Assembly: GCA_938005475.1 (NCBI GenBank)
Contig: CALLNY010000031.1
Location: 64,001-128,000, forward strand
From: an uncultured Bacteroidia bacterium
Lineage (GTDB): Bacteria > Bacteroidota > Bacteroidia > J057 > CALLMJ01
DNA: 64,000 nt
Direction of reading: 5' to 3'
Numbering within the stretch: position 1 is the stretch's first letter; each line of letters begins with the position of its first letter. The notes beneath the pieces are model-generated. The model made no database searches, had not been told where the DNA came from, and saw only the letters and a program-made list of their open reading frames with translations. A program made the position numbers and the translations under genes. Positions 9,247 through 52,735 of the stretch are shown in pieces.

Positions 9247-9254
9247 TATATTTG
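9247..9254 (+). promoter_or_regulatory. -7 element TATATTTG upstream of the ceramidase-like gene
   Basis: Exact TAnnTTTG match. The ORF-track start at 9252 is TTG and falls inside this motif. The first ATG is at 9270. Confidence 0.4.
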
Positions 9255-9269
9255 CATAAAATTTTTTAC

Positions 9270-29276: not shown

Positions 29277-29933
29277 TTATTGGGATTGTTTAGGTTTATT
29301 GAGACTATCAACAGGCAATAATAGTTTAGATTGCATGTCTAAAAATTTACCGTTTGTTTGGATTTGGTAAATTAATTTGGTAGGTGGTATATCCTCAACT
29401 TCTAATACTTTGGATAAGAATTGATAGGTTAGATGGAGTTCATTGGAATTGGGTATTACGCATTCTAATATTTCGGAACCATTTTCTTTTTTACGGATTT
29501 TAGCAACTTCAAGAGCATCAATCCATTTTCCTGTACTTTTCTCAAAGCTAACAACATAGAATTCTTGAAGTTCTCCATTGTATAAAATAAAGCCTATTAC
29601 TGATTCAGAGATTTTAAATTTACCGATATAATAAAAGGAAGTGCTTCTAGCATCTTTTATATGAATGGTTTCAATATTTCCTTCTTTGACCTGCACTTTT
29701 TGTCCATCTAAAAATTTTTTTACATAATCAAATTCAATAGCACCTTTGAAATAAGTAGAAGCATTGATTGAATAGGGAAAAGTTATCATAGGGACAACGT
29801 TGTAGAGAGAGTCCCAAACTACAGGTTTGACAATGCTTTCAGCAGAAACTTTTTTTTTATGTTTAGGTTTGGGTTTTTGTCTTTGACAATGAATAAAGCA
29901 TAAACCGATTAGGACTAATAACAATAGTCGCAT
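29277..29933 (-). CDS. hypothetical lipoprotein
   Basis: MRLLLLVLIGLCFIHC lipobox-like signal. No recognised domain. Confidence 0.4.
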   Translation of the reverse strand: MRLLLLVLIGLCFIHCQRQKPKPKHKKKVSAESIVKPVVWDSLYNVVPMITFPYSINASTYFKGAIEFDYVKKFLDGQKVQVKEGNIETIHIKDARSTSFYYIGKFKISESVIGFILYNGELQEFYVVSFEKSTGKWIDALEVAKIRKKENGSEILECVIPNSNELHLTYQFLSKVLEVEDIPPTKLIYQIQTNGKFLDMQSKLLLPVDSLNKPKQSQ

Positions 29934-31127: not shown

Positions 31128-31988
31128 ATGAATAACCTTAATTTTGCTTTATTACTATTGTTGCTTTGGGGTATTAGTGAGGAAATAACTGCTCAAAGGC
31201 GTCATAATTATTTTTCTTTTGGTCCTACTCTCGGTGCTACGAATTACAAGGGAGATTTAGATGATAATAATACTTTAAAATTTACAAAGCCAGGAGGAGG
31301 ATTTATAGCTAATTATCATTTTAATCCGCACATGTATTTAAGGTTAGGTTATTTATATGGTAGATTAGGGGCGGCAGACTCTCTTGCAACAGATGAAAAA
31401 AGAAAAAATAGAAATCTTCATTTCAGAAGTGAAATCAATGAGTTTCAAGTTAATTTAGTTTATGATTTTATAGGTTCTTTTGGTCGTTCAATTTTTAGGC
31501 CTATTTTCACACCCTATGTATTTGCGGGATTAGCTATTTATCGATTTAATCCACAAGCACAATTAGAGGGTAAATGGTATAATTTGCAACCTATTGGTAC
31601 GGAGGGGCAATACTTAAAAGGTGTTGAGGGTACTCCCAAACCTTATAAATTAACGCAACTGAACATTCCTTTTGGTGGAGGGTTTAAATTTAGGATGGGA
31701 GAACGGTGGGATTTAGCAATAGAATTAGGTGCCAGAAAATTATTCACGGATTATTTAGATGATGTCAGTGACCGTTATGTTGATCCACAAGAAATGTTAC
31801 GGCAACAGGGTGCTATCCCTATGCAACTTTCCGATAGAAGTGTATTTACGGATTTTGGTGCTAACTATTCTTACAGTGCTTATCGTGAAAATGTAATGCG
31901 TGGTTTTAAAAATCAAAAAGATTGGTACTTTTATACGGGTATAATTCTTACTTATGTAATTGAAGCAAAGGATAAATGCCCTAAATAA
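31128..31988 (+). CDS. outer membrane beta-barrel protein (hypothetical)
   Basis: Signal peptide, alternating amphipathic beta-strands and aromatic-rich turns. C-terminal ...YTGIILTYVIE... Confidence 0.4.
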   Translation: MNNLNFALLLLLLWGISEEITAQRRHNYFSFGPTLGATNYKGDLDDNNTLKFTKPGGGFIANYHFNPHMYLRLGYLYGRLGAADSLATDEKRKNRNLHFRSEINEFQVNLVYDFIGSFGRSIFRPIFTPYVFAGLAIYRFNPQAQLEGKWYNLQPIGTEGQYLKGVEGTPKPYKLTQLNIPFGGGFKFRMGERWDLAIELGARKLFTDYLDDVSDRYVDPQEMLRQQGAIPMQLSDRSVFTDFGANYSYSAYRENVMRGFKNQKDWYFYTGIILTYVIEAKDKCPK

Positions 31989-33699: not shown

Positions 33700-33963
33700 A
33701 AATATTCTTATAATTACTAACCTAATGAGAGATTGGTGTTACTTATCATTATAGAATAGAACAAAATTTAAAGTTTAAGTTATTTATTTGTAAATCAAAA
33801 AAATAGATTTTTCTAAATAATTATTTTAGAACAAAAAATTGAAAAAAAGTAATTTGTTTTGGTAGATAAAAAATCTTTTCTTGTATATTTGCCAAGTTCT
33901 TTAGAGAAATTGTAAGTAAGGAAATATAATGATATGATAAGTATAAAATACAGGAACTATATG

Positions 33964-36900
33964 TATAAACGACTGCAATACTTGATATTATTACTTTTGA
34001 TTAGTAGTAGTTTTTTATTTGGGCAAGATGCCGCAAAGATTAAGGGGGTCGTTAGAGATAATGAAACCAAAGAAACCCTTCCTTTTGCAACGGTAAAAAT
34101 TTATTTGAACGGAATTTTGAAGGGGGGAATGAATACTGATGATAAAGGAGAGTTTAGTTTTTCTCCAGTTGCTCCTGGTACTTATGATATTGAAGTTTCA
34201 TACTCTGGTCAAATTACAACGATTAAAGGTGTGGTTGTGGGTCCTGGAAAAACTGTGGTTCGGGAAATTTTTGTGGGGGCAGTAGTAGAAATGGGTACTG
34301 TTGAAATTACAGGAGAAAAATTGATTGAAGCAGACCAAACTGCCTCTGGGAACACGCTCACTAAACAGGATTTAGATAAATTAGCTTCAAGAAGTCTTTC
34401 CTCAAACATAGCAACGAGTGCGGGGATAGTGCAAGTAGATGATCAAAGGGGATTCAATGTGAGAGGTGCTCGTGCAGAAGGGCAAGAATATTTCGTAGAT
34501 GGAGTTCGTTTGAGTGGAAGAATAGCTCTACCACGTGCCGCCATTTCTCAATTATCAGTTATTACTGGAGGTACGCCAGCAGAATATGGTGATGCAACGG
34601 GAGGTATCATTCAAATTACTACTTCTGCTCCCAGTGCCGAACACACAGGATCTGTGGAAGCAATTACCTCCGAAGTTTTCGATAAATACGGATACAACTT
34701 AATCGCAGTGTCAGGTTCTGGACCCCTCATCAGTAAAAAAGACTCCACAGGTAAAAAAGTTACTACGAAATTAGGTTACTTTGCAGGTTTTGAGATGGAA
34801 TCCCAAAGAGACGCAAGCCCCTCTGCTGTTGGTATCTATAAAGTAAAACCTGAAATCCTTAAAGACCTTAAAGAAAATCCATTGACAACCTCTCCTGATG
34901 GTACCTTCTTCATCAATAGAGCTAACTACCTAACTAAAAATGATATTATTAACGAAAAATGGAAAGATGGTGCCTTAAATCGTGCAATTAGAGCGAATCT
35001 GCGCTTAGATTATCAATTAGGTAAAAACTCTTTCATTAAAATTGGGGGTAATTACGACAATACCAACCAAAAAATATGGAGTTTAACGAACTCCCTTTTA
35101 GCCCAGGAAGCCTTTGAAAGAAGAAAAGATTATACCGCTCGTGGTTACGTCCGTTTCCAACAGGTATTCCAAGACTCAGGTTCATTCATAAAAAATTTAT
35201 TTTACACTATCCAAGCAGATTACCAAGTGTTCAATCAAAATAGAATGGATGATAGACATCGCGATAAAATATTTAATTATGGGCATTATGGTAGTTTTAC
35301 TTCTAATTTTGCTGAAATTTTGTTCCCTATTACTCCGGGTTCTGAGTTCCACGACCCTTCCATCTCCCAAAGTACTTATTTAGGAACGATTGGGTTTACT
35401 GATACCAGCTATGTTTTTAGTGCTGATAATACTAGTAATCCTTTGATGGCTAACTACCTCAAAAATATCTACTCTTATTTAAGAGAAAACCCCAGAGAAG
35501 TTTTTGATTTCACTACCTTTTCAATTAGAACTACTAATACGGTTACTTCTCAAACCGATTTGCTTATTTTAGGGGGTATTCGTAACGGTGATGTCCCTCA
35601 AAATATTTATTCTCTCTATAATCCACAGGGAACAATATTTGGGATTTATTCTAAATATAATGAGCAAATGTATCGTTTGACAGGGCAGGCTACTGCTGAA
35701 ATTGGTAACCATAACTTTAAGTTAGGCTTTGAATTTCAACAAAGAACACAGCGTTATTGGGGGATTGCTTCTCGCGCTATATGGAGCATTATGAGGCAGT
35801 TAGCAAATAAACATTTAACTACTATCGATTATGACAACCCGATGCCAGTTTATGTGAATGGAGTTTTCCAAGACGTAGTTCATTATGACAGAAAATATGA
35901 ACCCACTAATCAATCTAATTTTGATATCAATTTGAGAAAGGCTTTAGGTAAACCAATTGATGGTACAGAATTCCTACAAATTGATGCTATGGACCCCAGC
36001 ACGTTTAGTTTAGATATGTTCAACGCAGATGAGTTGCTTAATAACGGTGCATCTTTTGTTACCTATTATGGTTATGATTTCAGAGGAAATAGAGTAGGTC
36101 GTAAGGCAGATAGTGAATTCTTCACAAACAAAGACTTCAGACACCAAAACGCTTACTCCCCTTCTTATTTAGCGGTATACTTGCAAGACAAGTTTGAAGT
36201 AAATAAAATGATTTTCAATATTGGTGTACGCGTTGACCGATTTGATGCTAATCAGAAAGTTTTAAAAGATAAGTTTATAATGCGTGATTTTTATAATGCA
36301 GGTGAAGCAGCGAATTTACTTGGTGTCAGTTTACCATCCAATGTTAATCCTAATTGGGCACCATACGTGGATAATATCAATAATCCAAGTAGAATCATAG
36401 GTTATCGTGATGGCTCCATTTGGTATGATGCTACAGGGAATCCTACTGATCCACGCCTGCTCGCCGCAAGTGGTAAAGTACAGCCCTACATCAAAACGGA
36501 TACTTTAAGTATTGACGCTTTCACAGATTACAAACCTCAAGTAAATATTATGCCTCGTATCTCTTTCTCTTTCCCTATCTCTGATGAAGCTTTGTTTTTT
36601 GCCCATTATGATGTACTTACTCAACGCCCTAAAGCCGCAGAAGTGGGGCAGTTCACAAATTATCTATACATTAACCAAAATGCAACCGAATCTATCACTA
36701 ACCCTAACCTAAAACCTGAAACCACCATAGATTACGAAGTAGGTTTTAAACAGGCTATCGGTGATAAAATGGCTTTAACTTTAACGGCTTTTTACCGTGA
36801 GATGCGTAATATGATCCAGATTTTACGTAACAATTATGCGTATCCTATTACCTATGATTCTTATGAGAATTTAGATTTCTCCACAGTAAAAGGTTTCTCA

Positions 36901-37674
36901 GGATCTATTGAAACTCGTAGAATGGGTCCTGTCAAGATGCGTGCCGCATATACTTTACAATTCGCAAGTGGGACAGGTTCCAGCTTCAATTCCTCCAGAG
37001 CTACTTTAGGTTCCATTGAAGGTTTTGCTGTGTTAAGAACTTTGTTACCTTTATCCTTTGACCAACGGCATACTATTACAGGTAATGTGGATTTCCGCTT
37101 CACAGGTGATCAAGTAAAACCTGGCAAGTATTTGAACGGTCCCGGTTTCGGCGGCAATGACTCCACAGGAAAAAGATTTTATCCTTTCAAAAACTTTGGT
37201 GCAAACTTAACCTTTAATTTAGGTTCTGGTACCCCTTATACTCGTAACTCTTTACCTAATACTGCTGATGTGCAATTTGGTATAAATGCTAACAATCAAA
37301 CTGCAGGTACTCCGATGGGTTCCAGATTACCATTCAATCTACGTTTTGATTTAAGAATTGATAAAGATTTCTTCTTTGGTGGTAAAGAAAAAGTCAATGA
37401 AGAAACAGGCCAAAAATCACGCACAAGAGAGTATTCTATGAATGTTCATATTTTATGTTTGAACTTATTGAATACCAAAAACATTATAGGGGTTTATACG
37501 TATTCGGGTTTGCCTGATAATAATGGATTTTTACAATCTGGCATTGGTCAGCAAACGATTGCAACGCAGTTTAGTCCTGCTTCATTTGTGGATTTATACA
37601 CAATTAAAGCGAATAGTCCATTTAATTTTAGTTTACCAAGACGTTTAAGATTAGGAATTATTTTTAACTTTTAA
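33964..37674 (+). CDS. large outer-membrane TonB-dependent-receptor-like protein with N-terminal carboxypeptidase-regulatory-like domain
   Basis: Signal peptide MYKRLQYLILLLLISSSFLFGQ, ...KIKGVVRDNETKETLPFATVKIYLNG... (CarbopepD_reg) and a plug-like ...NVRGARAEGQEYFVDGVRLSG...TGGTPAEYGDATGGIIQITT.... About 1236 aa. A -7-like TATATTTG lies at 33883-33890. Confidence 0.6.
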   Translation, partial: YKRLQYLILLLLISSSFLFGQDAAKIKGVVRDNETKETLPFATVKIYLNGILKGGMNTDDKGEFSFSPVAPGTYDIEVSYSGQITTIKGVVVGPGKTVVREIFVGAVVEMGTVEITGEKLIEADQTASGNTLTKQDLDKLASRSLSSNIATSAGIVQVDDQRGFNVRGARAEGQEYFVDGVRLSGRIALPRAAISQLSVITGGTPAEYGDATGGIIQITTSAPSAEHTGSVEAITSEVFDKYGYNLIAVSGSGPLISKKDSTGKKVTTKLGYFAGFEMESQRDASPSAVGIYKVKPEILKDLKENPLTTSPDGTFFINRANYLTKNDIINEKWKDGALNRAIRANLRLDYQLGKNSFIKIGGNYDNTNQKIWSLTNSLLAQEAFERRKDYTARGYVRFQQVFQDSGSFIKNLFYTIQADYQVFNQNRMDDRHRDKIFNYGHYGSFTSNFAEILFPITPGSEFHDPSISQSTYLGTIGFTDTSYVFSADNTSNPLMANYLKNIYSYLRENPREVFDFTTFSIRTTNTVTSQTDLLILGGIRNGDVPQNIYSLYNPQGTIFGIYSKYNEQMYRLTGQATAEIGNHNFKLGFEFQQRTQRYWGIASRAIWSIMRQLANKHLTTIDYDNPMPVYVNGVFQDVVHYDRKYEPTNQSNFDINLRKALGKPIDGTEFLQIDAMDPSTFSLDMFNADELLNNGASFVTYYGYDFRGNRVGRKADSEFFTNKDFRHQNAYSPSYLAVYLQDKFEVNKMIFNIGVRVDRFDANQKVLKDKFIMRDFYNAGEAANLLGVSLPSNVNPNWAPYVDNINNPSRIIGYRDGSIWYDATGNPTDPRLLAASGKVQPYIKTDTLSIDAFTDYKPQVNIMPRISFSFPISDEALFFAHYDVLTQRPKAAEVGQFTNYLYINQNATESITNPNLKPETTIDYEVGFKQAIGDKMALTLTAFYREMRNMIQILRNNYAYPITYDSYENLDFSTVKGFSGSIETRRMGPVKMRAAYTLQFASGTGSSFNSSRATLGSIEGFAVLRTLLPLSFDQRHTITGNVDFRFTGDQVKPGKYLNGPGFGGNDSTGKRFYPFKNFGANLTFNLGSGTPYTRNSLPNTADVQFGINANNQTAGTPMGSRLPFNLRFDLRIDKDFFFGGKEKVNEETGQKSRTREYSMNVHILCLNLLNTKNIIGVYTYSGLPDNNGFLQSGIGQQTIATQFSPASFVDLYTIKANSPFNFSLPRRLRLGIIFNF

Positions 37675-37678
37675 AAGT

Positions 37679-40600
37679 ATGGCTCAGAAAGTAAAAAAAC
37701 AGTTAATTTGGATATGCTTGATGTGGTTGGGATTAAGCATACAAGCGAAAGAAAATGTGCCTGGTGGTCCAAGGAAGACGGGCGGGGTAGCGAAAACTGC
37801 GGCTGGCTGTGTGCCTTCCAGTGCTTCCGCTCAATTAGATATCAATAACGTAAGAACGTTGTTGCACAATGGTGGTGATATGTGGTGGGATTTAGTGGGC
37901 AATCCCCGCTATGAAGTTCCCAAGGGTTCGGGTAAGCATTCTGCTTTTGCCGCCTCGTTGTGGATTGGTGGGTACGACCAAGCGGGGCAGTTAAGAGTTG
38001 CCGCCCAAACCTATCGGCAAAGTGGTAACGACTTCTATCCAGGTCCTTTAAAGGTTTCCCCCGGTCAAAATTACGGACCTGCTTCAACGGATGATGCTAT
38101 CTGTAAGCAATGGGATAGAATGTACAAAATTACCCGTGCTGAAATCAATCAGTTCAGAGCAGATTTTGCTTCCGGTACAGTAGATTTTTCTAAATATCCT
38201 ACTATTAAAGAATGGCCTGCTATGAATAATGATCCCGACTTCGAAACCTACCTCGCTCCTTTTGTAGATTTTAATAATAATGCTATTTATGACCCTGAAA
38301 CTGGTGGTGATTATCCCAAAGTAGATGGCGATCAAGCAATATGGTGGGTCATAAACGATAAAGGAAATATTCACACGGAATCCGGTGGAGAACAAATTGG
38401 CCTTGAAATTCAAGTGTTAGCTTTTGCATTCGTTGCATCTAACCAATTAAACGATATGACTTTCTATAAACAAAAAGTCATCAATCGTTCAACAAATACT
38501 ATTTTTAACACTTATATTGGGCAGTGGGTAGATGCTGATTTAGGGAATTATTCGGATGATTATGTAGGTTGTGATACGATTAGAGGTTTAGGTTACATCT
38601 ATAACGGGGATAACAATGATGAAACAGCACAAGGTTATGGGACTGTAATACCTTCGTTTGGAGTAGATTTCTTTCAAGGACCTTTGGCAGACCCCAATGA
38701 TGGTATTGACAATGATAAAGATGGCATTGTTGATGAGCCCGGCGAGCGAATCGGCATGGCTAAATTTGTTTATTATGATAATGATTTCACTCCTTATGGG
38801 AATCCATCAAGTCCTAATCATTTTTATCAATATCTGACAGGTTTTTGGAAGGATGGTTCTCCCATGACGGCAGATGGGCAGCGTGGACGTTCTCCTGAAT
38901 CTTCTGCAACTCCGAGAACAGACTACATTTTCCCGGGTTGGCCAGGGGGACCTTGTGCCGCTCCCTCAGGTTGGACCGAAAAATCCGCAGGAAATCCTCC
39001 TTTTGACCGACGTTTCTTAATGTCAGCAGGTCCTTTCACTTTAACTCCTGGTGCTGTCAATGAAATCGTTGTAGGTGCTGTATGGGCGCCCGGCTCTCCT
39101 AATGATGAAGTTGCTTCTTTATGTAAGTTGTTAAAAGCTGATGACATCGCTCAAGCGCTATTTGACAATGATTTCCAGGTTCTTAATGGTCCTGATGCTC
39201 CCGATTTAGTTATCAATGAATACGATAGAGAATTGTTATTAACTTGGGATTATTCTAAAATTGGTTCTATCTCAAATAATTATTTTGAAAATTACTCCGA
39301 AAAAGACCCTGTCTTAGCAAGTTCAGTGCTTCCACCAGGCAAATCCCCATTCTTCAAATTTCAGGGCTACATCGTTTACCAATTGATTGATAGTACGGTG
39401 TCTGCATCAGAACTAACCAATACTGATAAAGCGCGTATAGTATTACAATGCGATATTGAAGATTCTATTAGTACGATAGTTAATAGGACCTCAGAATTAG
39501 TAGCGGGATTATCTGATCCTGTGATTGTTGACCAAATCATGGTTCAAGGGGCAAACAAAGGAATTGTGCGTTCCGTAAGAGTAACAGAAGATTTATTTGC
39601 AGAAGGTACAGACAAACGTTTAGTTAATTATAGACCTTATTACTATACTATTATTGCTTACGCTTATAACGATACTTCTGCGGATGGTAGAAAATTCGTT
39701 CCTGGGAATGGAAATTTCAAGAGGTACAAGGGCACTGCTCATAAAGTAGAGTTTGAAAAATTCGGTACTCGTTTAAATTCTCAATACGGTGATGCCCCCG
39801 AAGTTACTCGTATTCAAGGTAATGGTACAGGAAATAGATTTTTAGATTTAAAAGATGAAGTTAGAAATAATATTTTAACGGGTTCAGTTAACAATTTGGT
39901 CTATCAATCAGGTTTTGCTCCCTTTGATATTAAAGTAGTAAATCCAAAAGAGGTACAAGCCAAGGAGTATATGTTAAGACTTACGGTAGATTCACTAGTA
40001 GAGGATAGAGGGGCAACGCAAGTTCGTGCTGATTGGGTTTTATATGCTAAATCGAATAATGCATGGCAAGAGATTTATAAATCTACTTATGTTTATGATG
40101 TGGCAACGGGCATATCTAATCCTGCTCCTTTAAATGGTGTTGAAAAGGTAGTCAATGGTCATGGGATATCTATTGCAGTGAAGAATCCATTAGATCCAGG
40201 GAATTGGCAAACTGACCGTACAAATGGTTTTATAGGAGCATCTATTGAGTATAGTGACCCTTCAAAGCCTTGGCTTTCGGGGTTAGAAGATTACGAAACT
40301 AATACAATAGACCAATGGAACTGGATTTTGTGTGGTAATGCGCATAAAACCAGTGGTAATCCTAATGTTACAGAGGATTATGGTGCTGAAGGTGCACAAG
40401 CTCCTATGCAATTTTATAGAGATTATAAGGCTTATGACCCTAATGAAGTGTATGAAAAGATTTTAGATAGAACATGGGCTCCCTATATTATGACACGTTC
40501 CTATAATATCAATACGGGGGTTGTTGGTCCGAGAATATCTTACGGTTCCTCTACTAACAACAATGAAGCGTTTATTGGTGATGCAGTGACGCTGGATAAA

Positions 40601-41635
40601 CTTCCAAATGTGGATATTGTTTTAACGAAGGATAAGACTAAATGGTCTCGCTGTGTTGTAATTGAGTCTTCACCAACAAAATCATTAGCGAATGCGGGTC
40701 AGGGAGGTTCTCATCCTATGACGGCGCGTTGGGCAATCTCTAAAGATATTAACGGGAATGAGGAGTCTTCAACATTGGATATCACGACACAAGGTATGTC
40801 TTGGTTTCCGGGTTATGCTATCAATGTTGAAACGGGTAAGCGATTAAATATTTTATTTGCGGAGGCATCATGGTATGCAAACCAGAATGGAGCAGATATG
40901 TTATTTAATCCAACGGCATCTCTCGGCTCCGATTTTAATGCAGTTGGTGGGCGTCATTATATTTATGTAAGTAACACGGAGTATGATGGATGTGCAACGT
41001 TAGCTCAAAGTTTAAGGGTGGGAACTTCCAATGTGGCAACTGGTGCAGATAATGGACATGTCTTTCCTAATGTACCTGGCGTTGGTTCTGTCTCGATTAG
41101 TAGTGCTCACAATACTTTTGCTTGGGTTACTATTGCTATGTTAAGTGATGCTAAATATGCGTTCAAGAAACCCGAAGATATGCCCTGTGATGTTACTATA
41201 AAATTAAGAGTCAATAAAAAATTCTCTAATGACAATCCAATTTATATTTTTGATACGAACAAGTTAGCGGCAAATTTGAATCAGACGGGAATAGCAAAAG
41301 ATGCATTAGAGACAATTCGTGTGGTTCCTAATCCTTATTATGGGCGTTCAGGAACGGGAAAATATCGTTATGAAAATTCCCAAATAGATTCTCGTGTCAA
41401 GATAACGAACTTGCCCCAAAAATGTACTATCAAGATATTTACTTTGAATGGTACTTTAGTAAGGACGTTCAAAAAAGACTCAGAGGTGCCCAATATTGAA
41501 TGGGATTTAAAGAATTCAAGTGGGGTGCCTGTGGCAAGTGGTGTTTATATAATCCATGTAGATGCAGGAGAGTTAGGTCAGAAGGTTGTTAAGTTCTTTG
41601 GTATAATGCCTGAGGTAGATTTAACTGCATATTAA
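37679..41635 (+). CDS. large secreted protein (1318 aa) with T9SS-type C-terminal sorting domain
   Basis: Signal peptide. 4-nt gap from the upstream gene. C-terminus ...IRVVPNPYYG...ASGVYIIHVDAGELGQKVVKFFGIMPEV resembles a type-A CTD with insertions. No other domain recognised by eye. Confidence 0.5.
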   Translation: MAQKVKKQLIWICLMWLGLSIQAKENVPGGPRKTGGVAKTAAGCVPSSASAQLDINNVRTLLHNGGDMWWDLVGNPRYEVPKGSGKHSAFAASLWIGGYDQAGQLRVAAQTYRQSGNDFYPGPLKVSPGQNYGPASTDDAICKQWDRMYKITRAEINQFRADFASGTVDFSKYPTIKEWPAMNNDPDFETYLAPFVDFNNNAIYDPETGGDYPKVDGDQAIWWVINDKGNIHTESGGEQIGLEIQVLAFAFVASNQLNDMTFYKQKVINRSTNTIFNTYIGQWVDADLGNYSDDYVGCDTIRGLGYIYNGDNNDETAQGYGTVIPSFGVDFFQGPLADPNDGIDNDKDGIVDEPGERIGMAKFVYYDNDFTPYGNPSSPNHFYQYLTGFWKDGSPMTADGQRGRSPESSATPRTDYIFPGWPGGPCAAPSGWTEKSAGNPPFDRRFLMSAGPFTLTPGAVNEIVVGAVWAPGSPNDEVASLCKLLKADDIAQALFDNDFQVLNGPDAPDLVINEYDRELLLTWDYSKIGSISNNYFENYSEKDPVLASSVLPPGKSPFFKFQGYIVYQLIDSTVSASELTNTDKARIVLQCDIEDSISTIVNRTSELVAGLSDPVIVDQIMVQGANKGIVRSVRVTEDLFAEGTDKRLVNYRPYYYTIIAYAYNDTSADGRKFVPGNGNFKRYKGTAHKVEFEKFGTRLNSQYGDAPEVTRIQGNGTGNRFLDLKDEVRNNILTGSVNNLVYQSGFAPFDIKVVNPKEVQAKEYMLRLTVDSLVEDRGATQVRADWVLYAKSNNAWQEIYKSTYVYDVATGISNPAPLNGVEKVVNGHGISIAVKNPLDPGNWQTDRTNGFIGASIEYSDPSKPWLSGLEDYETNTIDQWNWILCGNAHKTSGNPNVTEDYGAEGAQAPMQFYRDYKAYDPNEVYEKILDRTWAPYIMTRSYNINTGVVGPRISYGSSTNNNEAFIGDAVTLDKLPNVDIVLTKDKTKWSRCVVIESSPTKSLANAGQGGSHPMTARWAISKDINGNEESSTLDITTQGMSWFPGYAINVETGKRLNILFAEASWYANQNGADMLFNPTASLGSDFNAVGGRHYIYVSNTEYDGCATLAQSLRVGTSNVATGADNGHVFPNVPGVGSVSISSAHNTFAWVTIAMLSDAKYAFKKPEDMPCDVTIKLRVNKKFSNDNPIYIFDTNKLAANLNQTGIAKDALETIRVVPNPYYGRSGTGKYRYENSQIDSRVKITNLPQKCTIKIFTLNGTLVRTFKKDSEVPNIEWDLKNSSGVPVASGVYIIHVDAGELGQKVVKFFGIMPEVDLTAY

Positions 41636-41649
41636 ACGAAGCACAAGCA

Positions 41650-42717
41650 ATGAAAAATATAGCAATAATTATTTTGGGGGTGATATTAAGTTCTCCGTTT
41701 TTAAAAGCTGGTAATCCCGAAAGGGCGGGTCAGGCGGGAGCAACGCAATTACTGATAAATCCATGGGCTCGTAACACGGGCGTACATGGTATCAATACGG
41801 CTAATGCTTATGGGATTGAGTCTGTGATTAATAATCCTGCTGGATTAGCAAAAACTAAGAGAACAGAACTCATATTTTCTCATACTAGGTATTTGGTTGG
41901 ATCTGACATCAATTTAAACACATTTGGTATATCTCAAGGTCTTAAAAAGGGGGGAGTACTTGGTTTATCGGTTGTTTCCTTTGATTTGGGGGAATTTGAG
42001 CGAACTACTATAGATCAGCCGGATGGTACTTTAGGTACTTTTAGGCCTACTTTCTTAAATATAGGTATATCATATGCAAAAACTTTCGTAGAGGATAGGA
42101 TTTATGTAGGTTTTACTACAAGACTTATACATGAGTCTATAACAGATGTTTCTGCGAATGGTGTTGCATTTGATGCGGGAGTGCAATATACTGATAAGGA
42201 TGGTAAATTTAGAATAGGTGTTGCATTAAAGAATGTGGGTCCTGAAATGCGATACTCGGGGGATGGTTTAACGCAAAGAGCTAATTTAGGGGGTCCTAAT
42301 AGCAGATTTACAAGTAATGTTTCTACGATAGCATCTAAATTTGAGTTACCTACTCAACTCAATATCGGGGCTTCGTATGAATGGAGTTTGGGTGGGGATT
42401 CTGTTTCAACTATTCATACAATTTTACCAATGATAAATTTTACTGCGAATGCATACGCAAGAGATCAAATTGGTGCGGGTGCGGAGTATCGTTTTAAGAA
42501 ATATTTTATGTTTAGAGCGGCATATGTGTGGGAAAAAGGAATAACTAATCCAGAGGAGAGAATAAATGTCTATACAGGTATTGCTTTTGGTGCTACGGTT
42601 GAAATTCCGTTCAAATCGGGGGATGGGCGTTATTCTTCTTTTGGATTGGATTATAGTTATAGAACAACAAATCCTTTTCAAGGTACACATTCTATTGGTT
42701 GTAGAGTAAATTTATAG
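41650..42717 (+). CDS. T9SS-associated outer-membrane beta-barrel protein (PorV/PorQ or PorP/SprF-like)
   Basis: Signal peptide, ...NAYGIESVINNPAGLA... (the NPA motif region seen in PorP/SprF and PorV families), beta-barrel-like alternation and aromatic C-terminus. 14-nt gap after the CTD protein. Confidence 0.45.
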   Translation: MKNIAIIILGVILSSPFLKAGNPERAGQAGATQLLINPWARNTGVHGINTANAYGIESVINNPAGLAKTKRTELIFSHTRYLVGSDINLNTFGISQGLKKGGVLGLSVVSFDLGEFERTTIDQPDGTLGTFRPTFLNIGISYAKTFVEDRIYVGFTTRLIHESITDVSANGVAFDAGVQYTDKDGKFRIGVALKNVGPEMRYSGDGLTQRANLGGPNSRFTSNVSTIASKFELPTQLNIGASYEWSLGGDSVSTIHTILPMINFTANAYARDQIGAGAEYRFKKYFMFRAAYVWEKGITNPEERINVYTGIAFGATVEIPFKSGDGRYSSFGLDYSYRTTNPFQGTHSIGCRVNL

Positions 42718-42726
42718 TTTATAGTT

Positions 42727-43200
42727 ATGTCAGAGATATATTACTTAACGAAGGAAGGGTACGATAAATTGGTTCAGGAATTACATGATTTAAAAACAAA
42801 AGAACGAGCAAAGATTGCTGCGGCAATAGCGGAAGCAAGAGAAAAAGGGGACCTTAGCGAAAATGCTGAATACGATGCGGCAAAAGAAGCTCAAGGTCTC
42901 CTTGAGCTTAAAATTTCTAAATTGGAAGAGATGTTAATCAATTCCAGAATACTTTCAGATGATGAAATTGATACATCGAAAGTTTATATTTTAAGTACTG
43001 TGAAATTAAAGAACCTCTCCCAAAATGATATTTTTACCTATACTTTAGTTTCACAAAGAGAAGCTAATATAAAAGAAGGAAAAATTTCTGTTGAATCACC
43101 GATTGGTAAAGCTTTATTAGGGAAATCGGTTGGGGATATTGTAGAAATAAAGGCTCCTGTTGGTATTTTAAAATTTGAAATATTAGAAATTACAAGATAA
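42727..43200 (+). CDS. greA: transcription elongation factor GreA
   Basis: ...GYDKLVQELHDLKTKERAKIAAAIAEAREKGDLSENAEYDAAKEAQ... is the canonical GreA coiled-coil. Confidence 0.9.
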   Translation: MSEIYYLTKEGYDKLVQELHDLKTKERAKIAAAIAEAREKGDLSENAEYDAAKEAQGLLELKISKLEEMLINSRILSDDEIDTSKVYILSTVKLKNLSQNDIFTYTLVSQREANIKEGKISVESPIGKALLGKSVGDIVEIKAPVGILKFEILEITR

Positions 43201-43201
43201 A

Positions 43202-43600
43202 ATGGCAACTATATTTTCTAAAATTATTTCAGGTGAAATTCCTTGCTATAAAATTGCAGAAACTAATGATTATCTTGCTTTTCTTGATATCAATCCCGTT
43301 AAAAAAGGTCATGTTTTGGTAATTCCAAAGAGAGAAATAGATTATTACTTTGATTTGGATGATGAGCTTTTTATTGGCTTGAATCTATTTACTAAATTAG
43401 TTGCTGATGCTATTAAAAAAGCTATTCCGTGTAAAAAAGTTGGAGTTGCCGTTGTTGGACTGGAAGTTCCACATGCTCATGTTCATTTAATACCTATTGA
43501 TTCGGTCAATGATATTTATTTTTCTGGTCCTAGATTAAGTATTGCTCCAGAAGAATTAGATATTATTGCACAAAAAATAAGAGAAAAGTTGCAAGTCTAA
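43202..43600 (+). CDS. HIT-family (histidine triad) protein
   Basis: ...VPHAHVHLIP... HxHxHxx motif. 132 aa. Confidence 0.85.
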   Translation: MATIFSKIISGEIPCYKIAETNDYLAFLDINPVKKGHVLVIPKREIDYYFDLDDELFIGLNLFTKLVADAIKKAIPCKKVGVAVVGLEVPHAHVHLIPIDSVNDIYFSGPRLSIAPEELDIIAQKIREKLQV

Positions 43601-47665: not shown

Positions 47666-48532
47666 ATGTATTCTGTTAGAAATTTTTATTTTCGAATTCC
47701 TTTAAGGTTGTTACCTGAGAATGATATTGATGTTTTTAGTTTTTTCCCATCCAAGAATTTGATTTTATGGAATAAGACCCCTGATACTTTATCAATAGGT
47801 TTTCAAATGGATTGGGTATCTTGGCAGAAATCATTATTTGAGTTTTTGACAAAATTTTTTCAGCCTAAGCTTTTTCAGGTGATTACCTATGTTGCTCCTA
47901 TACGAAGAGAGCCTTGCCATACTTCTGAAATGATTTCTCAACTACTTAGAGGAGAAACTTTTACTGTTTTTTTTGTGCAGGAAGATTTTGCTTTTGGTTG
48001 TGGGGAAGATGGTTATTTTGGTTATGTATCTATTCATCAAATTGAACGTTTTGAAAAAGAGTATTATCGTATTTTTGGATGGCATCGTGAATATCCATTA
48101 GGATCAAAAGTTCTAGAAAAACCCATGAGTTTCAATTATAATCAATTGATAATGGATTTATTAGAGTCTCCATATTTATGGGGAGGTCGTTCAAATTGGG
48201 GAATAGACTGCTCTGGACTTACTCAAATATTTATGCTTGCTCGGAATATTTTCTTACCAAGGGATGCCTATCAGCAAGCGGATTTTGGCGAAACTATACC
48301 ATATAGAAAACATAAGAAGGGCGATTTAGCTTTCTTTGGTGATTCTATTGATAGTATTACACACGTTGGTTATATATTGGATAGACATATTATTTTCCAC
48401 GCTTATGGTGAAGTAAGAATTGATAAACTTAAATCAGGTGGTATTTTTCATAATGGTTATCATAAAATTACTCACAAATTGCTTGTTATTAAAAGGTATT
48501 CTGACTCTTTTGATTTTAGGAAATGCTTGTAA
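47666..48532 (+). CDS. NlpC/P60 (C40) family peptidase
   Basis: ...WGGRSNWGIDCSGLTQ... catalytic Cys motif with downstream His (...ITHVGYIL...). Confidence 0.75.
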   Translation: MYSVRNFYFRIPLRLLPENDIDVFSFFPSKNLILWNKTPDTLSIGFQMDWVSWQKSLFEFLTKFFQPKLFQVITYVAPIRREPCHTSEMISQLLRGETFTVFFVQEDFAFGCGEDGYFGYVSIHQIERFEKEYYRIFGWHREYPLGSKVLEKPMSFNYNQLIMDLLESPYLWGGRSNWGIDCSGLTQIFMLARNIFLPRDAYQQADFGETIPYRKHKKGDLAFFGDSIDSITHVGYILDRHIIFHAYGEVRIDKLKSGGIFHNGYHKITHKLLVIKRYSDSFDFRKCL

Positions 48533-49355
48533 CCCTGCACTGGAAAAAAATAATATCCCTATAAGTTTTTCTTTTCGTTTGGATAATGATTTTGATTATG
48601 ATTTGTTTATTCGTGATGTTTACTATTTAAAGCAATTAGGAGTTCACCATTTTTCTGTTGAGTTAATTTTAAAAAATGATAGTAATAATACGCCTTATTT
48701 AGAAAATATACAATCGCTTAATGCAGTTCTTTACAAACTCGATTCTTTGAATTTTTATGTTCATTTAATAATTTCAAAATGGAATGCTAGGTCTATTCTA
48801 GTTTCGGATACACTGTTAGAAAAATGGAATTTGCTTTATCAACAGTTACTGGATACTTTTATACTTCAATTGCAACCATTTAAGATAGTTAGTTTGGTTT
48901 ATGGTGTTGATTTTGAGAACATTGAAAAGAGAAAAGAACTTTATTCTGATTGGTTATTTAAAATACAAAGTAAGGTTTCCTATCCTATTTTTTACAGTTC
49001 TTCTTTGTTTCATACGATAGATTGCCAATTACATGAATATTCAGATTTTATCGGAATTTTTTACGAACAAGCCTTTGATGATAGATATAAAAAATTGGCT
49101 CGAGAGTTACACCCAAAAATTTCACAAAAGTTTAAAAATAAGAAAATTATAATTACTCATGCAAATATACAAGGAAAAGATGCCAAGTTGCAATTTCAAA
49201 ATTTACTGCGTTTTTGGGTTGAAGATAATATCCAACTAATAAACATAAATTCTATTTATAATCAAAGTGTTATGAGTAGGAATAGCGTATATTTTAGTCT
49301 AAAGGAAGCTCAATCTTTTAAGGAATATTTATCCGACTATCTGACATATCATTAA
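48453..49355 (+). CDS. hypothetical secreted/lipoprotein-like protein
   Basis: Starts in a different frame inside the NlpC/P60 tail (MVIIKLLTNCLLLKGILTLLILGNAC...). No ATG occurs after 48532, so an 80-nt overlap is required, or a frameshift/fusion is present. Confidence 0.4.
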   Translation: MVIIKLLTNCLLLKGILTLLILGNACNPALEKNNIPISFSFRLDNDFDYDLFIRDVYYLKQLGVHHFSVELILKNDSNNTPYLENIQSLNAVLYKLDSLNFYVHLIISKWNARSILVSDTLLEKWNLLYQQLLDTFILQLQPFKIVSLVYGVDFENIEKRKELYSDWLFKIQSKVSYPIFYSSSLFHTIDCQLHEYSDFIGIFYEQAFDDRYKKLARELHPKISQKFKNKKIIITHANIQGKDAKLQFQNLLRFWVEDNIQLININSIYNQSVMSRNSVYFSLKEAQSFKEYLSDYLTYH

Positions 49356-49441: not shown

Positions 49442-52400
49442 ATGATGAAGGCTTGTCTAATTCTAAAGCTATCTATATTGATTATAGGAATAGTTCATTC
49501 GCAAAACAGTTTTTATACTAAACATTTTAATCCAAAAGAATATAATGCGGCACCAATAATATGGAATATTCAACAAGATGCAAGGGGGCTATTATTTATG
49601 GCTAATAATAAAGGAGTTCTGATTTTTGATGGTTCCTGGAAGCTCATACCTACTCCAACACCAGTACGTTCCTTGTTTATTACTAAGAGTAATCAAATTT
49701 TAGTGGGTTGCAAATCGGATTTTGGTATTCTCGATTATCAGAAAAATGGTTCTTATTACTATAAATCTTGGCGAACTTTTCTGAATAAACAAGACCAACT
49801 TCTCATTAAAGATGTAGAAAAAATTTATCAAAATGCGGATGCTACGGTTTATATTACGGATAATGTGGTTTTTCGTGCGGTGGATAATGGGCAGATTAAG
49901 AACTTTCAGAAATTTGTTTTAGAGGATAGAGTGTTAGGATCAGGAATGGTTAATAATAAAATATGGATTAACATCAATGGTAAGGGTTTGCATGAGGTGG
50001 ATAGAGAGTTAAAACCTGTGCCTGGTGGGGGTATCTTTAAAGACCAAGAGATTTCTGGAATAACCCAAAATATCAGTGGGAATTATTATATTGCTACTTA
50101 TGAAGGGAATTTATACGTTTATGATGGCAATTTTCGTGTTATCAACACCAGTGCAGATGCCTATTTAAAAGTAAATAAAATTTACGATATAACTGCAGTG
50201 GGAGATAATATAGGGATTGCTACCATGAAGGGTGGTGCTGTCTATGTAAATAGAAAGGAAAATTTAGCTTATTTTTTTAATAAAGAAAATGGTTTCCCAG
50301 ATAATGATATGTATTCTATCTTCTCAGATAGAGAAAACAATTTGTGGTTAGGACATGGAAAAGGGCTTTCGAAAGTTGGGATTGATATTCCCGTCAAGGT
50401 TTATACTGCTTTGCATGGGTTACAAGGGAGAATATCTGATATTTTACATGTAAATGGTATTACTTATGTTTCAACTTCGCAGGGGGTATTTTATATAAAG
50501 AATAACAAAGTGGAGCGAGTAGGTGGAATTACGAGTGAGGCGTGGTATCTACTTAATCTTAATAATAGTGTTTTAGTAGCAACGAATCAAGGGGTTTTTG
50601 ATATCACAGGAGGCAGTACAAAACCTGTTGTGTCCAATGATTACACCGTAAAAATTATACCTTCTGTCCAGAATAATTATGCTTATGTTTTAGCTTTACC
50701 GGGACTTTATAGAATCAAAAATGAAGCAGGTTGGAAACAAGAAAAAAAATTTAATGAAGTAAAAATGGAGTTGAACTCGGTTGAAGAGGAGAGTGAGGGT
50801 AAATTATGGGCAGGAACAGCTGTTCAGGGGGTTTTTTTACTTGAAATAAGTGATGCCGTTAAAATTTCTCGGTATGACACCAGTGCAGGTCTTCCTGAAG
50901 GTAGTATATCCGTTTTTAAGTATCAATCTAAAATTTATTTTAAATCTAAAGCAGGAATTTATCATTTTCAAAATAACCGCTTTCAGATTCATAATGAGTT
51001 AACCAATTTATTGAAGGATTTTGATTTTGATATTGTTAATGATAAAATATGGATAAAAAATGATGCGGGTTATATTGCATTGAATAATGGGCAACTAGAT
51101 TCTATAGGTTATCATAACATACTACAACAAAAACCTGATATCGGTTTTGCAACAGATAATATGGTTTTTCTGGGGTTTGCAGACGTATTATTGATTGCTC
51201 AAAAACAAAATTCCATTTCTAGTACTTTCCAGTGTTTTATTAGAGAGGTTAAAATTGGTAAAGATTCTGTATTCTTTGGAGGTAACTACCTTAACAAAGA
51301 GGGTTTATTTCAGACTACACAACAAGATAACTTTAAGCCTTCTATTCTATATTCTCAAAATCAAATTCATATAGAACTCGGTACGAATAGTTTTATCAAT
51401 GAATCTGCAAATCGTTACAAATACATTATAGAAGGATTAGGAGAATGGTCTGATTGGCAGGCATCACCTATTATACAGATAAGTGGTATTAGTGAAGGGA
51501 ATTATATTTTAAAAGTTATAGCCAAAAATGCCTATGGGCAAATTAGTGAACCGGTGGTTTTTGAGTTTAAGGTTTTGCCTCCGTGGTATAGGAGTATATG
51601 GACTTATTTGCTGGCGGCATCCTTATTAGCTTTTGCAGTTTATTGGATTATACGTTACAATAGTAAACGATTGGAGGCAGAAAATAGACGTTTGGATAAC
51701 ATTGTAAAAGAAAGAACGGCACAAGTAGAAAAACAAAAACAAGAAATAGAACAGGCTTATAATACGCTCAAGTCTACGCAAGAACAATTAGTACAGTCTG
51801 AAAAAATGGCTTTTTTGGGTCAGTTAGTAGCTGGGATAGCTCATGAAATCAATACGCCTATTGGTGCAGTGAATGCCTCCGCAACTAATATCAATAAAGT
51901 ATTGCCATTAACGATTAGTAAACTGCCTGAAGTCCTCAAAACATTAAATGAAGAAGAGTTAAAACTCTTTAATCAGATGACCGAGCAAATTTTAGGGTTC
52001 AATACTACGCTGACCTCTCGTGAAGAAAGGCAGTTTAAAAAAGAACTTTCACAAAAATTAGAAACAATGGGAGTAGATACTAATTTATCTGCAGAATTAG
52101 TAAAAGTAGGCTTGATTGAGAATATTGAAAAATATAAAGACCTATTTAGTCATCCTAAAGGAGTAGAAATTGTTAATGCAGCGGCGAATTTGGGGAAAAT
52201 CAAGAAAAACGTAGATACTATTGAAACGGCGGTAGCCAAAACTCAAAAGATTGTCTTTGCTTTAAAATCTTATTCTTATAAATCTCATGATGAACAAGCT
52301 GTTGAAATTGATGTTGCTGAAAATATGAGAACAATTCTGACCATTTATGGTAATCAGCTCAAGCATGGTGTAGAGTTAATAACAAACTTTGAGGAGAATC

Positions 52401-52735
52401 TACCGATGATAAAAGGCTGGCCTGATGAATTAAGTCAAGTATGGACGAACATCATTCATAATGCATTGCAAGCAATGGACAATAAAGGGAAACTCCAAAT
52501 AGATATTCTAAAAGAAAATAACGGTATTTTAGTGAAAATAACCGATTCAGGACCGGGTATTCCAAAAGAAATTCAAGATAAAATTTTCCAACCTTTCTTT
52601 ACTACCAAAAAACAAGGTGAGGGTTCTGGTTTAGGGTTAGATATTTGTAGAAAAATCGTTGAAAAACATAAAGGTAAAATATGGGTAGATTCCGAACCTG
52701 GTAGAACTACCTTTTTAGTTTGGTTACCTTTATAA
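49442..52735 (+). CDS. hybrid-architecture sensor histidine kinase with periplasmic two-component-regulator beta-propeller/Y_Y_Y domains
   Basis: Signal peptide, long propeller-like extracytoplasmic region, TM (...YLLAASLLAFAVYWII...), coiled coil, HisKA (...AGIAHEINTPIG...) and HATPase_c (...DSGPGIPKE...GSGLGL...). 1097 aa. Confidence 0.8.
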   Translation: MMKACLILKLSILIIGIVHSQNSFYTKHFNPKEYNAAPIIWNIQQDARGLLFMANNKGVLIFDGSWKLIPTPTPVRSLFITKSNQILVGCKSDFGILDYQKNGSYYYKSWRTFLNKQDQLLIKDVEKIYQNADATVYITDNVVFRAVDNGQIKNFQKFVLEDRVLGSGMVNNKIWININGKGLHEVDRELKPVPGGGIFKDQEISGITQNISGNYYIATYEGNLYVYDGNFRVINTSADAYLKVNKIYDITAVGDNIGIATMKGGAVYVNRKENLAYFFNKENGFPDNDMYSIFSDRENNLWLGHGKGLSKVGIDIPVKVYTALHGLQGRISDILHVNGITYVSTSQGVFYIKNNKVERVGGITSEAWYLLNLNNSVLVATNQGVFDITGGSTKPVVSNDYTVKIIPSVQNNYAYVLALPGLYRIKNEAGWKQEKKFNEVKMELNSVEEESEGKLWAGTAVQGVFLLEISDAVKISRYDTSAGLPEGSISVFKYQSKIYFKSKAGIYHFQNNRFQIHNELTNLLKDFDFDIVNDKIWIKNDAGYIALNNGQLDSIGYHNILQQKPDIGFATDNMVFLGFADVLLIAQKQNSISSTFQCFIREVKIGKDSVFFGGNYLNKEGLFQTTQQDNFKPSILYSQNQIHIELGTNSFINESANRYKYIIEGLGEWSDWQASPIIQISGISEGNYILKVIAKNAYGQISEPVVFEFKVLPPWYRSIWTYLLAASLLAFAVYWIIRYNSKRLEAENRRLDNIVKERTAQVEKQKQEIEQAYNTLKSTQEQLVQSEKMAFLGQLVAGIAHEINTPIGAVNASATNINKVLPLTISKLPEVLKTLNEEELKLFNQMTEQILGFNTTLTSREERQFKKELSQKLETMGVDTNLSAELVKVGLIENIEKYKDLFSHPKGVEIVNAAANLGKIKKNVDTIETAVAKTQKIVFALKSYSYKSHDEQAVEIDVAENMRTILTIYGNQLKHGVELITNFEENLPMIKGWPDELSQVWTNIIHNALQAMDNKGKLQIDILKENNGILVKITDSGPGIPKEIQDKIFQPFFTTKKQGEGSGLGLDICRKIVEKHKGKIWVDSEPGRTTFLVWLPL

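Follow-up and report, generated by a model that had tools for sequence, protein, structure and literature searches.

What keeps the genes for a TonB-dependent transporter, a very large secreted protein, and a small outer-membrane barrel together as one conserved set, and what might the three proteins do at the cell surface? The question is raised by a stretch of 64,000 nucleotides (nt) from an uncultured Bacteroidia bacterium (positions 64,001 to 128,000 of contig CALLNY010000031.1, assembly GCA_938005475.1), which was analyzed as a whole and which we call the window. On its forward strand, gene 1 (33934-37674; 1246 amino acids [aa]; a TonB-dependent transporter), gene 2 (37679-41635; 1318 aa; a protein with a type IX secretion system [T9SS] C-terminal domain [CTD]), and gene 3 (41650-42717; 355 aa; an outer-membrane barrel of the PorV/PorQ family) follow one another with gaps of 4 and 14 nt. 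A first-pass annotation, made from the sequence alone, had described three tightly packed genes separated by these same gaps. The open reading frames (ORFs) lie exactly where it had placed them, and the observation of a three-gene outer-membrane set is confirmed.

We observe three protein types, their folds, their tight linkage, and their co-variation. Drawing on homology, folds, and gene linkage, we tentatively propose, at a little less than an even chance, that the trio forms one outer-membrane complex in which the gene 2 protein is docked on a barrel of its own and serves the transporter. The earlier reading of the locus as a dedicated T9SS cargo accompanied by partners in the outer membrane is supported by family models, by two confident structure models, and by conserved synteny.

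RESULTS

The trio is kept together across orders of Bacteroidota

At least 586 species-level genomes carry relatives of gene 2. Sampling one genome per species, we took the best 80 of these and counted adjacency with the window proteins as tblastn queries. Upstream of gene 2, the transporter is adjacent in 65 of the 72 loci that could be tested, and downstream of it the barrel is adjacent in 71 of 76, an arrangement in related Bacteroidota that is not chance; in 64 of 71 loci, greA lies downstream at a distance of no more than 2.2 kb. Across orders, about 90% of testable loci conserve the order transporter, gene 2, barrel, greA, HIT, with identities of 33-59% for the trio proteins and intergenic gaps that are mostly shorter than 70 nt. 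The labels of the best 80 genomes are Bacteroidota or unspecific, save for two with evidently wrong genus labels. The homologs listed come almost only from metagenome-assembled genomes (MAGs), the exception being the complete genome of "Pontibacter sp. G13" (CP134696), which carries the trio order, as do a 4.2-Mb contig and a contig labeled KSB1.

Some individual loci deserve a remark of their own. A transporter homolog labeled candidate division KSB1 (P0298, locus L085) stands in the same trio-greA-HIT-ruvC context as in Bacteroidota, which suggests that the label is a binning or labeling error and not a sign of another phylum. In L085, as in L001 and L084, ruvC follows greA-HIT on the opposite strand; a GT2 glycosyltransferase gene is next to ruvC on its far side in L084, and in L001 one gene lies between the two. 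The trio is rearranged in L034 and L063. A histidine kinase gene precedes the gene 2 homolog of L046, and L022 comes from the MAG that also contains the syntenic locus L014, so that it is a second copy.

Gene 1 encodes a plug-in-barrel transporter

Three domains score above their Pfam cut-offs in gene 1: a CarboxypepD_reg N-terminal extension (PF13620; residues 36-109, 34039-34260 on the plus strand; 46 bits, cut-off 32.3), a Plug domain (PF07715; residues 134-225, 34333-34608, plus strand; 34.4 bits, cut-off 23.9), and TonB_dep_Rec_b-barrel (PF00593; 61.3 bits, cut-off 27). The barrel spans residues ~238-1246 (34645-37671, plus strand), as judged from Foldseek, from DSSP applied to an AlphaFold2 (AF2) model, and from the conserved C-terminal ending. 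Just before the plug lies a candidate TonB box, TVEITGEKLI (residues 122-131, 34297-34326, plus strand), recognized by its pattern only; the family consensus of this moderately conserved stretch is TVEIVEYKLI (53 homologs). Together with a signal peptide at the front, the succession of extension, plug, and barrel is the Oar-type domain order.

The AF2 model, built with 53 homologs for residues 115-1246, reached a mean predicted local distance difference test (pLDDT) of 87.1 and a predicted template modeling score (pTM) of 0.84, and DSSP finds ~22-24 long strands in its barrel. Foldseek aligned it end to end with PhuR, Cir, PfeA, FhuA, BtuB, and Bacteroides XusA (E-values, 1e-23 to 4e-27; target TM-scores, 0.6-0.8). 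In the model, a surplus of some 450 residues seems to be accommodated in loops. The C-terminal Phe is invariant within a conserved ...RLGxxFNF ending (homolog alignment), and the family occupies a narrow length range of 1210-1270 aa. Gene 1 is thus a genuine plug-in-barrel TonB-dependent transporter with long loops. The first-pass annotation had rightly recognized the carboxypeptidase-regulatory and plug segments; its picture of an odd, merely plug-like giant does not survive. SusC-type receptors measure ~1000-1100 aa, and to call gene 1 "far larger" than these overstated a modest excess in a protein of classical fold.

Among NCBIfam hits at E<=0.01, no SusC/RagA-named model matched gene 1. 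A SusC/RagA-type pair with SusD was considered and rejected on this ground, and on the ground that gene 2 has neither a SusD domain nor a lipobox.

Gene 2 belongs to a large undescribed family of secreted proteins

From its N terminus, gene 2 encodes a signal peptide, four mostly beta domains, a T9SS CTD, and a conserved tail. The Sec signal peptide, as read from the sequence, is MAQKVKKQLIWICLMWLGLSIQA|KEN, and the family has no conserved lipobox. The body, searched as four segments, found no Pfam match even at E<=10, which led us to reject Peptidase C25 or another catalytic domain, and it has no relative in the PDB by sequence. At 90% identity, homologs fall into more than 6,900 clusters; they are mostly full length and 37-52% identical to gene 2, the best-matching ones 45-52%. 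A single-sequence search of a representative library gave 2,839 clusters at 50% identity (E<=1e-30). Nearly all of the homologs listed lack a precomputed Pfam domain, and their source annotations read "hypothetical" or "T9SS type A sorting domain-containing". Gene 2 is, in short, a secreted protein of a large undescribed family.

An AF2 model of residues 25-1210, ending before the CTD, reached a pLDDT of 82.8 and a pTM of 0.67. Structure searches with it returned a supersandwich match alone: every structural match listed is a supersandwich-containing protein, and none is a peptidase. In the model, the match is assigned to domain 1 (residues ~49-499, 37823-39175, plus strand), a predicted galactose-mutarotase-like beta-supersandwich that is the best conserved domain of the body and carries calcium-site-like motifs (WVDADLG..DD and DNDKDGIVDE). 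Domains 2-4 (residues ~504-690, 704-874, and 880-1200; 39188-41278, plus strand) comprise beta-sandwich domains and a mixed domain; their borders are approximate, being taken from the secondary-structure string of the model, and invariant columns also mark them out. Their conserved motifs are KWSRCVVxE, GMSWFPGYAINVxTGxRLN, and GGRHY, and no Pfam or PDB sequence match was found for any of the three.

The remark that the 1318-aa gene is more GC-rich than its surroundings holds good: its GC content is 0.398 against a mean of 0.345 (standard deviation, 0.034) for 48 ORFs of the window, several of which have a GC content similar to its own. Its GC3 is ordinary (0.297 versus 0.272) and the excess sits at the second codon position (GC2, 0.416 versus 0.320), so the difference stems from amino acid composition and has no bearing on origin. 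No mobile-element genes occur among the surrounding genes, which are housekeeping ones. A foreign origin of gene 2 was rejected on these three grounds: the normal GC3, the excess in GC2, and the housekeeping neighborhood.

The C terminus of gene 2 is PorZ-like and strongly conserved

The CTD occupies residues ~1210-1305 (41306-41593, plus strand), located by TIGR04183, by the C terminus of the PorZ model, and by a PDB match. Its best match is to the last 70 residues of the PorZ model in NCBIfam (E 9e-11), and the same holds for the family at large. Among 35 members, 32 match the PorZ C terminus, 28 match TIGR04183 (E<0.01), and 10 match the C terminus of PorU. Whether the family profile or the isolated C terminus was used, the sole PDB sequence match was residues 686-754 of PorZ (5m11_A), the CTD of the crystal structure. 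Judged by its sequence, the CTD of gene 2 is of a divergent, PorZ-like kind, and these matches favor the earlier claim of a T9SS-like C-terminal domain. The suspected insertions in it are real as well, with YYGRSGTGKYRYENSQIDSR inserted between the first two strands. An identity with PorZ itself was rejected: the PorZ equivalog NF052228 gives gene 2 only 40.9 bits against a cut-off of 260, and the alignment covers model positions 686-751, that is, the CTD alone.

Mean pairwise identity is 0.62 in the CTD, compared with 0.50 for the whole gene 2 protein and 0.38 for domains 3-4, and the CTD equals domain 1 in conservation. Such conservation is unexpected for a signal that is merely cut off and, with the gene adjacency and the residual co-variation with the barrel, lends indirect support to a retained CTD. 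Beyond it lies a conserved tail of 13 residues (GIMPEVDLTAY; 41594-41632, plus strand; alignment of 57 homologs). Across the family the tail follows the pattern MPxxDLxx[FY], with D1314 invariant and an aromatic last residue. PorZ (5m11_A) ends ~4 residues past the aligned CTD in the HMMER alignment. This conserved tail may contact the barrel.

Elsewhere in the window, a 727-aa FG-GAP repeat protein (15095-17278, plus strand) carries a canonical type A CTD (Pfam Por_Secre_tail, 44 bits), in contrast to the divergent one of gene 2; from this cargo it follows that the organism has a T9SS. Beside this cargo is a 518-aa ORF (17286-18842, minus strand) whose sole match is a PKD domain near its C terminus.

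Gene 3 encodes a distinct PorV/PorQ-family barrel

Gene 3 matches the PorV/PorQ family model NF033709 almost from end to end (144.2 bits, cut-off 90, model positions 3-325 of 326), as do all 35 of the homologs that we compared, and the INNPAGLA motif falls at residues 60-67. None of the narrower models fits. Gene 3 scores 73.9 bits against 220 on the PorQ equivalog NF033711 (best E among the 35 homologs, 6e-23), 60.8 against 250 on the PorV equivalog NF033710, and 19.7 against 90.55 and 19.9 against 22.3 on the PorP/SprF models TIGR03519 and PF11751, respectively. All 35 homologs show the same pattern on the family and equivalog models, and some weakly touch the "PorV2" model. The family profile retrieved Flavobacterium johnsoniae PorV (6h3i_F; E 1e-16) and, weakly, two proteins of the FadL family, TbuX and TodX (E 0.006-0.013); these weak matches give indirect support for a putative FadL-like barrel of 14 strands.

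On the evidence of the family models, gene 3 is a separate subfamily of PorV/PorQ barrels and is none of PorV, PorQ, PorV2, or PorP/SprF. The first-pass annotation had likened it to both the PorP/SprF and the PorV families. The second likeness stands, at 144 bits on the family model, and the first falls with a score of 19.7 against 90.55; an assignment to PorP/SprF was rejected on the sub-threshold scores of both models.

The three proteins co-vary

Pairwise distance matrices of the trio proteins correlate at 0.75-0.92, highest between the transporter and the small barrel (0.92), and at 0.5-0.7 with those of greA. When greA and the other domains of gene 2 were controlled for, partial correlation with the barrel was 0.34 for the CTD and 0.37 for domain 2, compared with 0.08, 0.02, and 0.15 for domains 1, 3, and 4. 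All of these mirror-tree values come from non-independent observations and carry no significance test, and they are to be read as suggestive only.

Transcription signals and neighboring genes

Downstream of the trio come its conserved neighbors, greA and a HIT-family gene (42727-43600, plus strand; identified with Pfam and NCBIfam), greA beginning 9 nt after gene 3. They are probably co-transcribed with the trio; we do not assume that they are functional parts of it. A scan of the window found no terminator-like site before 44024. The gap 5' of gene 1 is AT-rich and 234 nt long, and within it we read from the sequence a candidate -7 promoter element, TATATTTG (33884-33891, plus strand), with TTTG ~22 nt upstream. 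The element fits what we take to be the Bacteroidota -7 consensus, TAnnTTTG, and is a possible, weakly evidenced, -7 element of Bacteroidota type for the trio. A sigma-70 promoter scan of the window was uninformative for Bacteroidota.

Two genes upstream of the trio lies a gene for a 286-aa outer-membrane beta-barrel protein (DUF6089/OMP_b-brl; 31128-31988, plus strand); where gene tables of other loci were compared, this neighbor was not conserved. Downstream of the HIT gene, the window continues with rpmG, a DUF4295 gene, and aroA. Further afield are a 580-aa homolog of neutral/alkaline ceramidase (9252-10994, plus strand; Pfam, 356 bits), which may relate to sphingolipid metabolism, and a 1097-aa sensor with Reg_prop, Y_Y_Y, and HATPase domains (49442-52735, plus strand) followed by a response-regulator-SpoIIE phosphatase (53218-54915, plus strand); a second SpoIIE protein, with TPR, is encoded at 12390-14348. 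Three ORFs gave no Pfam match at E<=1e-5: 4964-6541 (plus strand, 525 aa), 29277-29933 (minus strand, 218 aa), and 48420-49355 (plus strand, 311 aa). The last of these overlaps the end of an NlpC/P60 gene (47666-48532) by ~110 nt, and its true start is for that reason probably further downstream.

DISCUSSION

A proposed docking of the surface protein on its own barrel

How might these three proteins work together? In the scenario that we propose, the CTD of gene 2 would stay uncleaved and bound to the adjacent gene 3 barrel, as PorZ is to PorQ and PorU to PorV, and the barrel-bound CTD would hold the large gene 2 protein at the cell surface. In Porphyromonas gingivalis, the T9SS substrates PorZ and PorU retain their CTDs and have the barrels PorQ and PorV as their anchors (PMC10947112, PMC10202324, PMC12365241). 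The pair encoded here fits this mode of anchoring because a conserved, PorZ-like CTD occurs together with a private, neighboring barrel of the PorV/PorQ family. We consider barrel anchoring of the uncleaved CTD likely, and it is the best-supported step of the scenario.

The remaining steps concern the transporter, the new element here, whose linkage and co-variation are as tight as those of the other two. Linkage and co-variation suggest that the anchored gene 2 protein could be an extracellular partner of the transporter, either a receptor or a cap. Domain 1, a supersandwich of carbohydrate-binding type, would capture and perhaps process a ligand, which the transporter would then move across the outer membrane with energy from TonB. 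The gene 2 protein would thereby play a role akin to that of the SusD, BtuG, and XusB lipoproteins, but would be delivered by the T9SS and attached through a barrel, not through a lipid. That a barrel of the PorV family can bind a transporter-like barrel has a precedent, for Cytophaga hutchinsonii PorV co-purifies with CHU_1606, a homolog of PorF (PMC8564354).

Several observations weigh against this proposal. The CTD of gene 2 scores 22.5 bits on the type A model TIGR04183, just under the cut-off of 23, and 20 bits on Pfam PF18962, where the cut-off is 27. Nutrient-uptake loci of Bacteroidota usually include a regulator and catabolic or periplasmic uptake genes, and the locus has none of these. 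A gene 2 homolog stands without transporter and barrel in 3-4 of the 80 loci (L022, L046, and L048). The supersandwich fold alone is no proof that domain 1 binds sugar. The mirror-tree correlations carry the reservation given above, and a shared environment alone may make outer-membrane proteins co-vary. Finally, single-copy conservation beside housekeeping genes suits envelope maintenance as well as it suits uptake.

Alternative readings of the locus

The most probable of the alternatives, which we nonetheless regard as unlikely, is a T9SS accessory module in which the three proteins would have PorF-, PorZ-, and PorQ-like roles. Gene 2 would then bind a surface glycolipid or glycan and pass it to the sortase, or process or anchor other cargo, and the transporter would act like PorF. 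The affinities of the sequences run in this direction, with the CTD nearest to that of PorZ and gene 3 scoring slightly higher on PorQ than on PorV (74 versus 61 bits). So does the single-copy, housekeeping-like conservation. PorF (PG0534), a barrel resembling TonB receptors, is required for T9SS function (PMC5445135), and the co-purification of its C. hutchinsonii homolog with PorV (PMC8564354) speaks for an accessory role too. PorZ, moreover, binds the glycan A-LPS (anionic lipopolysaccharide) (PMC8545088), and domain 1 has a fold of the sugar-binding type.

Somewhat less probable again is that gene 2 encodes an ordinary, cleaved T9SS cargo, for instance a secreted or lipopolysaccharide-anchored glycan enzyme or binder, with neighbors that are merely inherited alongside it or only loosely related. 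The type A model is matched by 28 of 35 family members, and cleavage is the usual fate of type A cargo (PMC10202324); many glycoside hydrolases and lyases have a supersandwich fold, and the homologs of L022, L046, and L048 stand alone. Against these points must be set the ~90% adjacency across orders with its short gaps, co-variation within the trio that is far above that with greA, and the place of the CTD among the most conserved parts of gene 2. No catalytic domain is recognizable in gene 2 by sequence, and the structure searches gave the supersandwich match only.

The transporter might also work outward, as Oar does for PopC in Myxococcus, with an exported polymer or protein being assembled or modified by the gene 2 protein; this we think doubtful. 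Its domain order is the same as that of Oar (PMC6434023), the locus is without uptake or catabolic genes, and the conservation is housekeeping-like. The locus offers no candidate for an exported substrate or a synthesis pathway, however, the same architecture is the commonest among importers of Bacteroidota (PMC6434023), and only one example of export by a transporter of this sort is known.

The porU-porV pair of sortase and shuttle barrel, offered in the first-pass annotation as another reading of genes 2 and 3, and favored by similar sizes and order (a CTD-bearing protein of ~1300 aa ahead of a barrel of the PorV family) and by a weak PorU CTD hit in 10 of 35 family members, is refuted by the family models (PorU NF033707, 16.3 bits versus 420 and in the CTD only; PorV, 60.8 versus 250), by the lack of any Peptidase_C25 match at E<=10, and by structural matches to supersandwich proteins and not to peptidases.

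What one complex would mean

Many communities of the gut, of soil, of fresh water, and of the sea are dominated by Bacteroidota, whose success owes much to outer-membrane complexes for capturing and importing nutrients. To our knowledge, the partners of their TonB-dependent transporters have so far been surface lipoproteins, and we know of no transporter attached to the barrel-anchored T9SS proteins described to date (PorZ, PorU, and the type B adhesins). If the trio does form one complex, with the gene 2 protein docked on its barrel and serving the transporter, it would join T9SS and TonB-dependent transport, two hallmark systems of the phylum, and would represent, in addition to lipoprotein lids, another means of forming complexes of a transporter and a surface protein. 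That the trio stands for a widespread and unrecognized outer-membrane machine of Bacteroidota, in which a partner is docked by a retained PorZ-like CTD on a PorQ-like barrel, is a possibility that we hold with more reserve still. The trio is at any rate a concrete, testable set of genes, and one of its carriers is a sequenced strain, G13 (CP134696).

Comparison with known systems

Each part of the trio is of a known kind; the subfamily of gene 3 is distinct, and the family of gene 2 is without a described domain. In the literature, with the journals covered in part, we found no description of a transporter combined with a T9SS-delivered, barrel-anchored partner.

The closest likeness for genes 2 and 3 is to PorZ-PorQ and PorU-PorV of P. 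gingivalis, in which a T9SS-exported surface protein with a CTD is likewise paired with a barrel of the PorV/PorQ family. The trio differs in that the body of gene 2 is unrelated, with no PorZ or PorU model match outside the CTD, in that gene 3 is neither a PorQ nor a PorV equivalog, and in the addition of a conserved TonB-dependent transporter and a post-CTD tail. In the type B CTD pairs SprB-SprF and PG1035-PorP, too, the cargo gene comes before that of the barrel which carries or anchors its product, and the cargo is held by cognate adjacent PorP/SprF barrels (PMC9143113, PMC12618676); the CTD of the trio, in contrast, is type A/PorZ-like, and gene 3 fails the PorP/SprF model.

Gene 1 calls for other comparisons. 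In SusC-SusD, BtuB-BtuG, and XusA-XusB, as in the trio, a transporter gene is directly followed by that of a large, surface-exposed partner with a domain of ligand-binding type, and the fold of XusA is among the Foldseek matches of gene 1. Unlike those partners, the gene 2 protein is no lipoprotein, is unrelated to SusD, and carries a T9SS signal; the third gene of the trio would supply a barrel anchor, and the locus is without a regulator or enzymes. With Myxococcus xanthus Oar, gene 1 shares the CarboxypepD_reg extension, the plug with its candidate TonB box, and the large barrel, and the domain order of the Oar subclass is the commonest in Bacteroidota (PMC6434023). The likeness is one of domain order, and Oar has no T9SS-type partners.

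PorF (PG0534) and CHU_1606 resemble gene 1 as transporter-like outer-membrane barrels that are linked to the T9SS and to a barrel of the PorV family (PMC5445135, PMC8564354). By the published descriptions PorF is set apart, at ~92 kDa and reportedly without a plug, from the 1246 aa of gene 1 with its plug (PMC5445135, PMC8564354). The last of the comparisons concerns the architecture of the proposed complex as a whole. In BamG-BamH, the surface-exposed protein is a lipoprotein, the partner barrel is BamA, and the BamG model is weakly touched by just 2 of 35 gene 3 homologs; yet BamG, a FadL/PorV-like barrel of 14 strands, holds a surface-exposed protein beside a larger barrel (PMC12578637, PMC12611786), much as we propose for gene 3.

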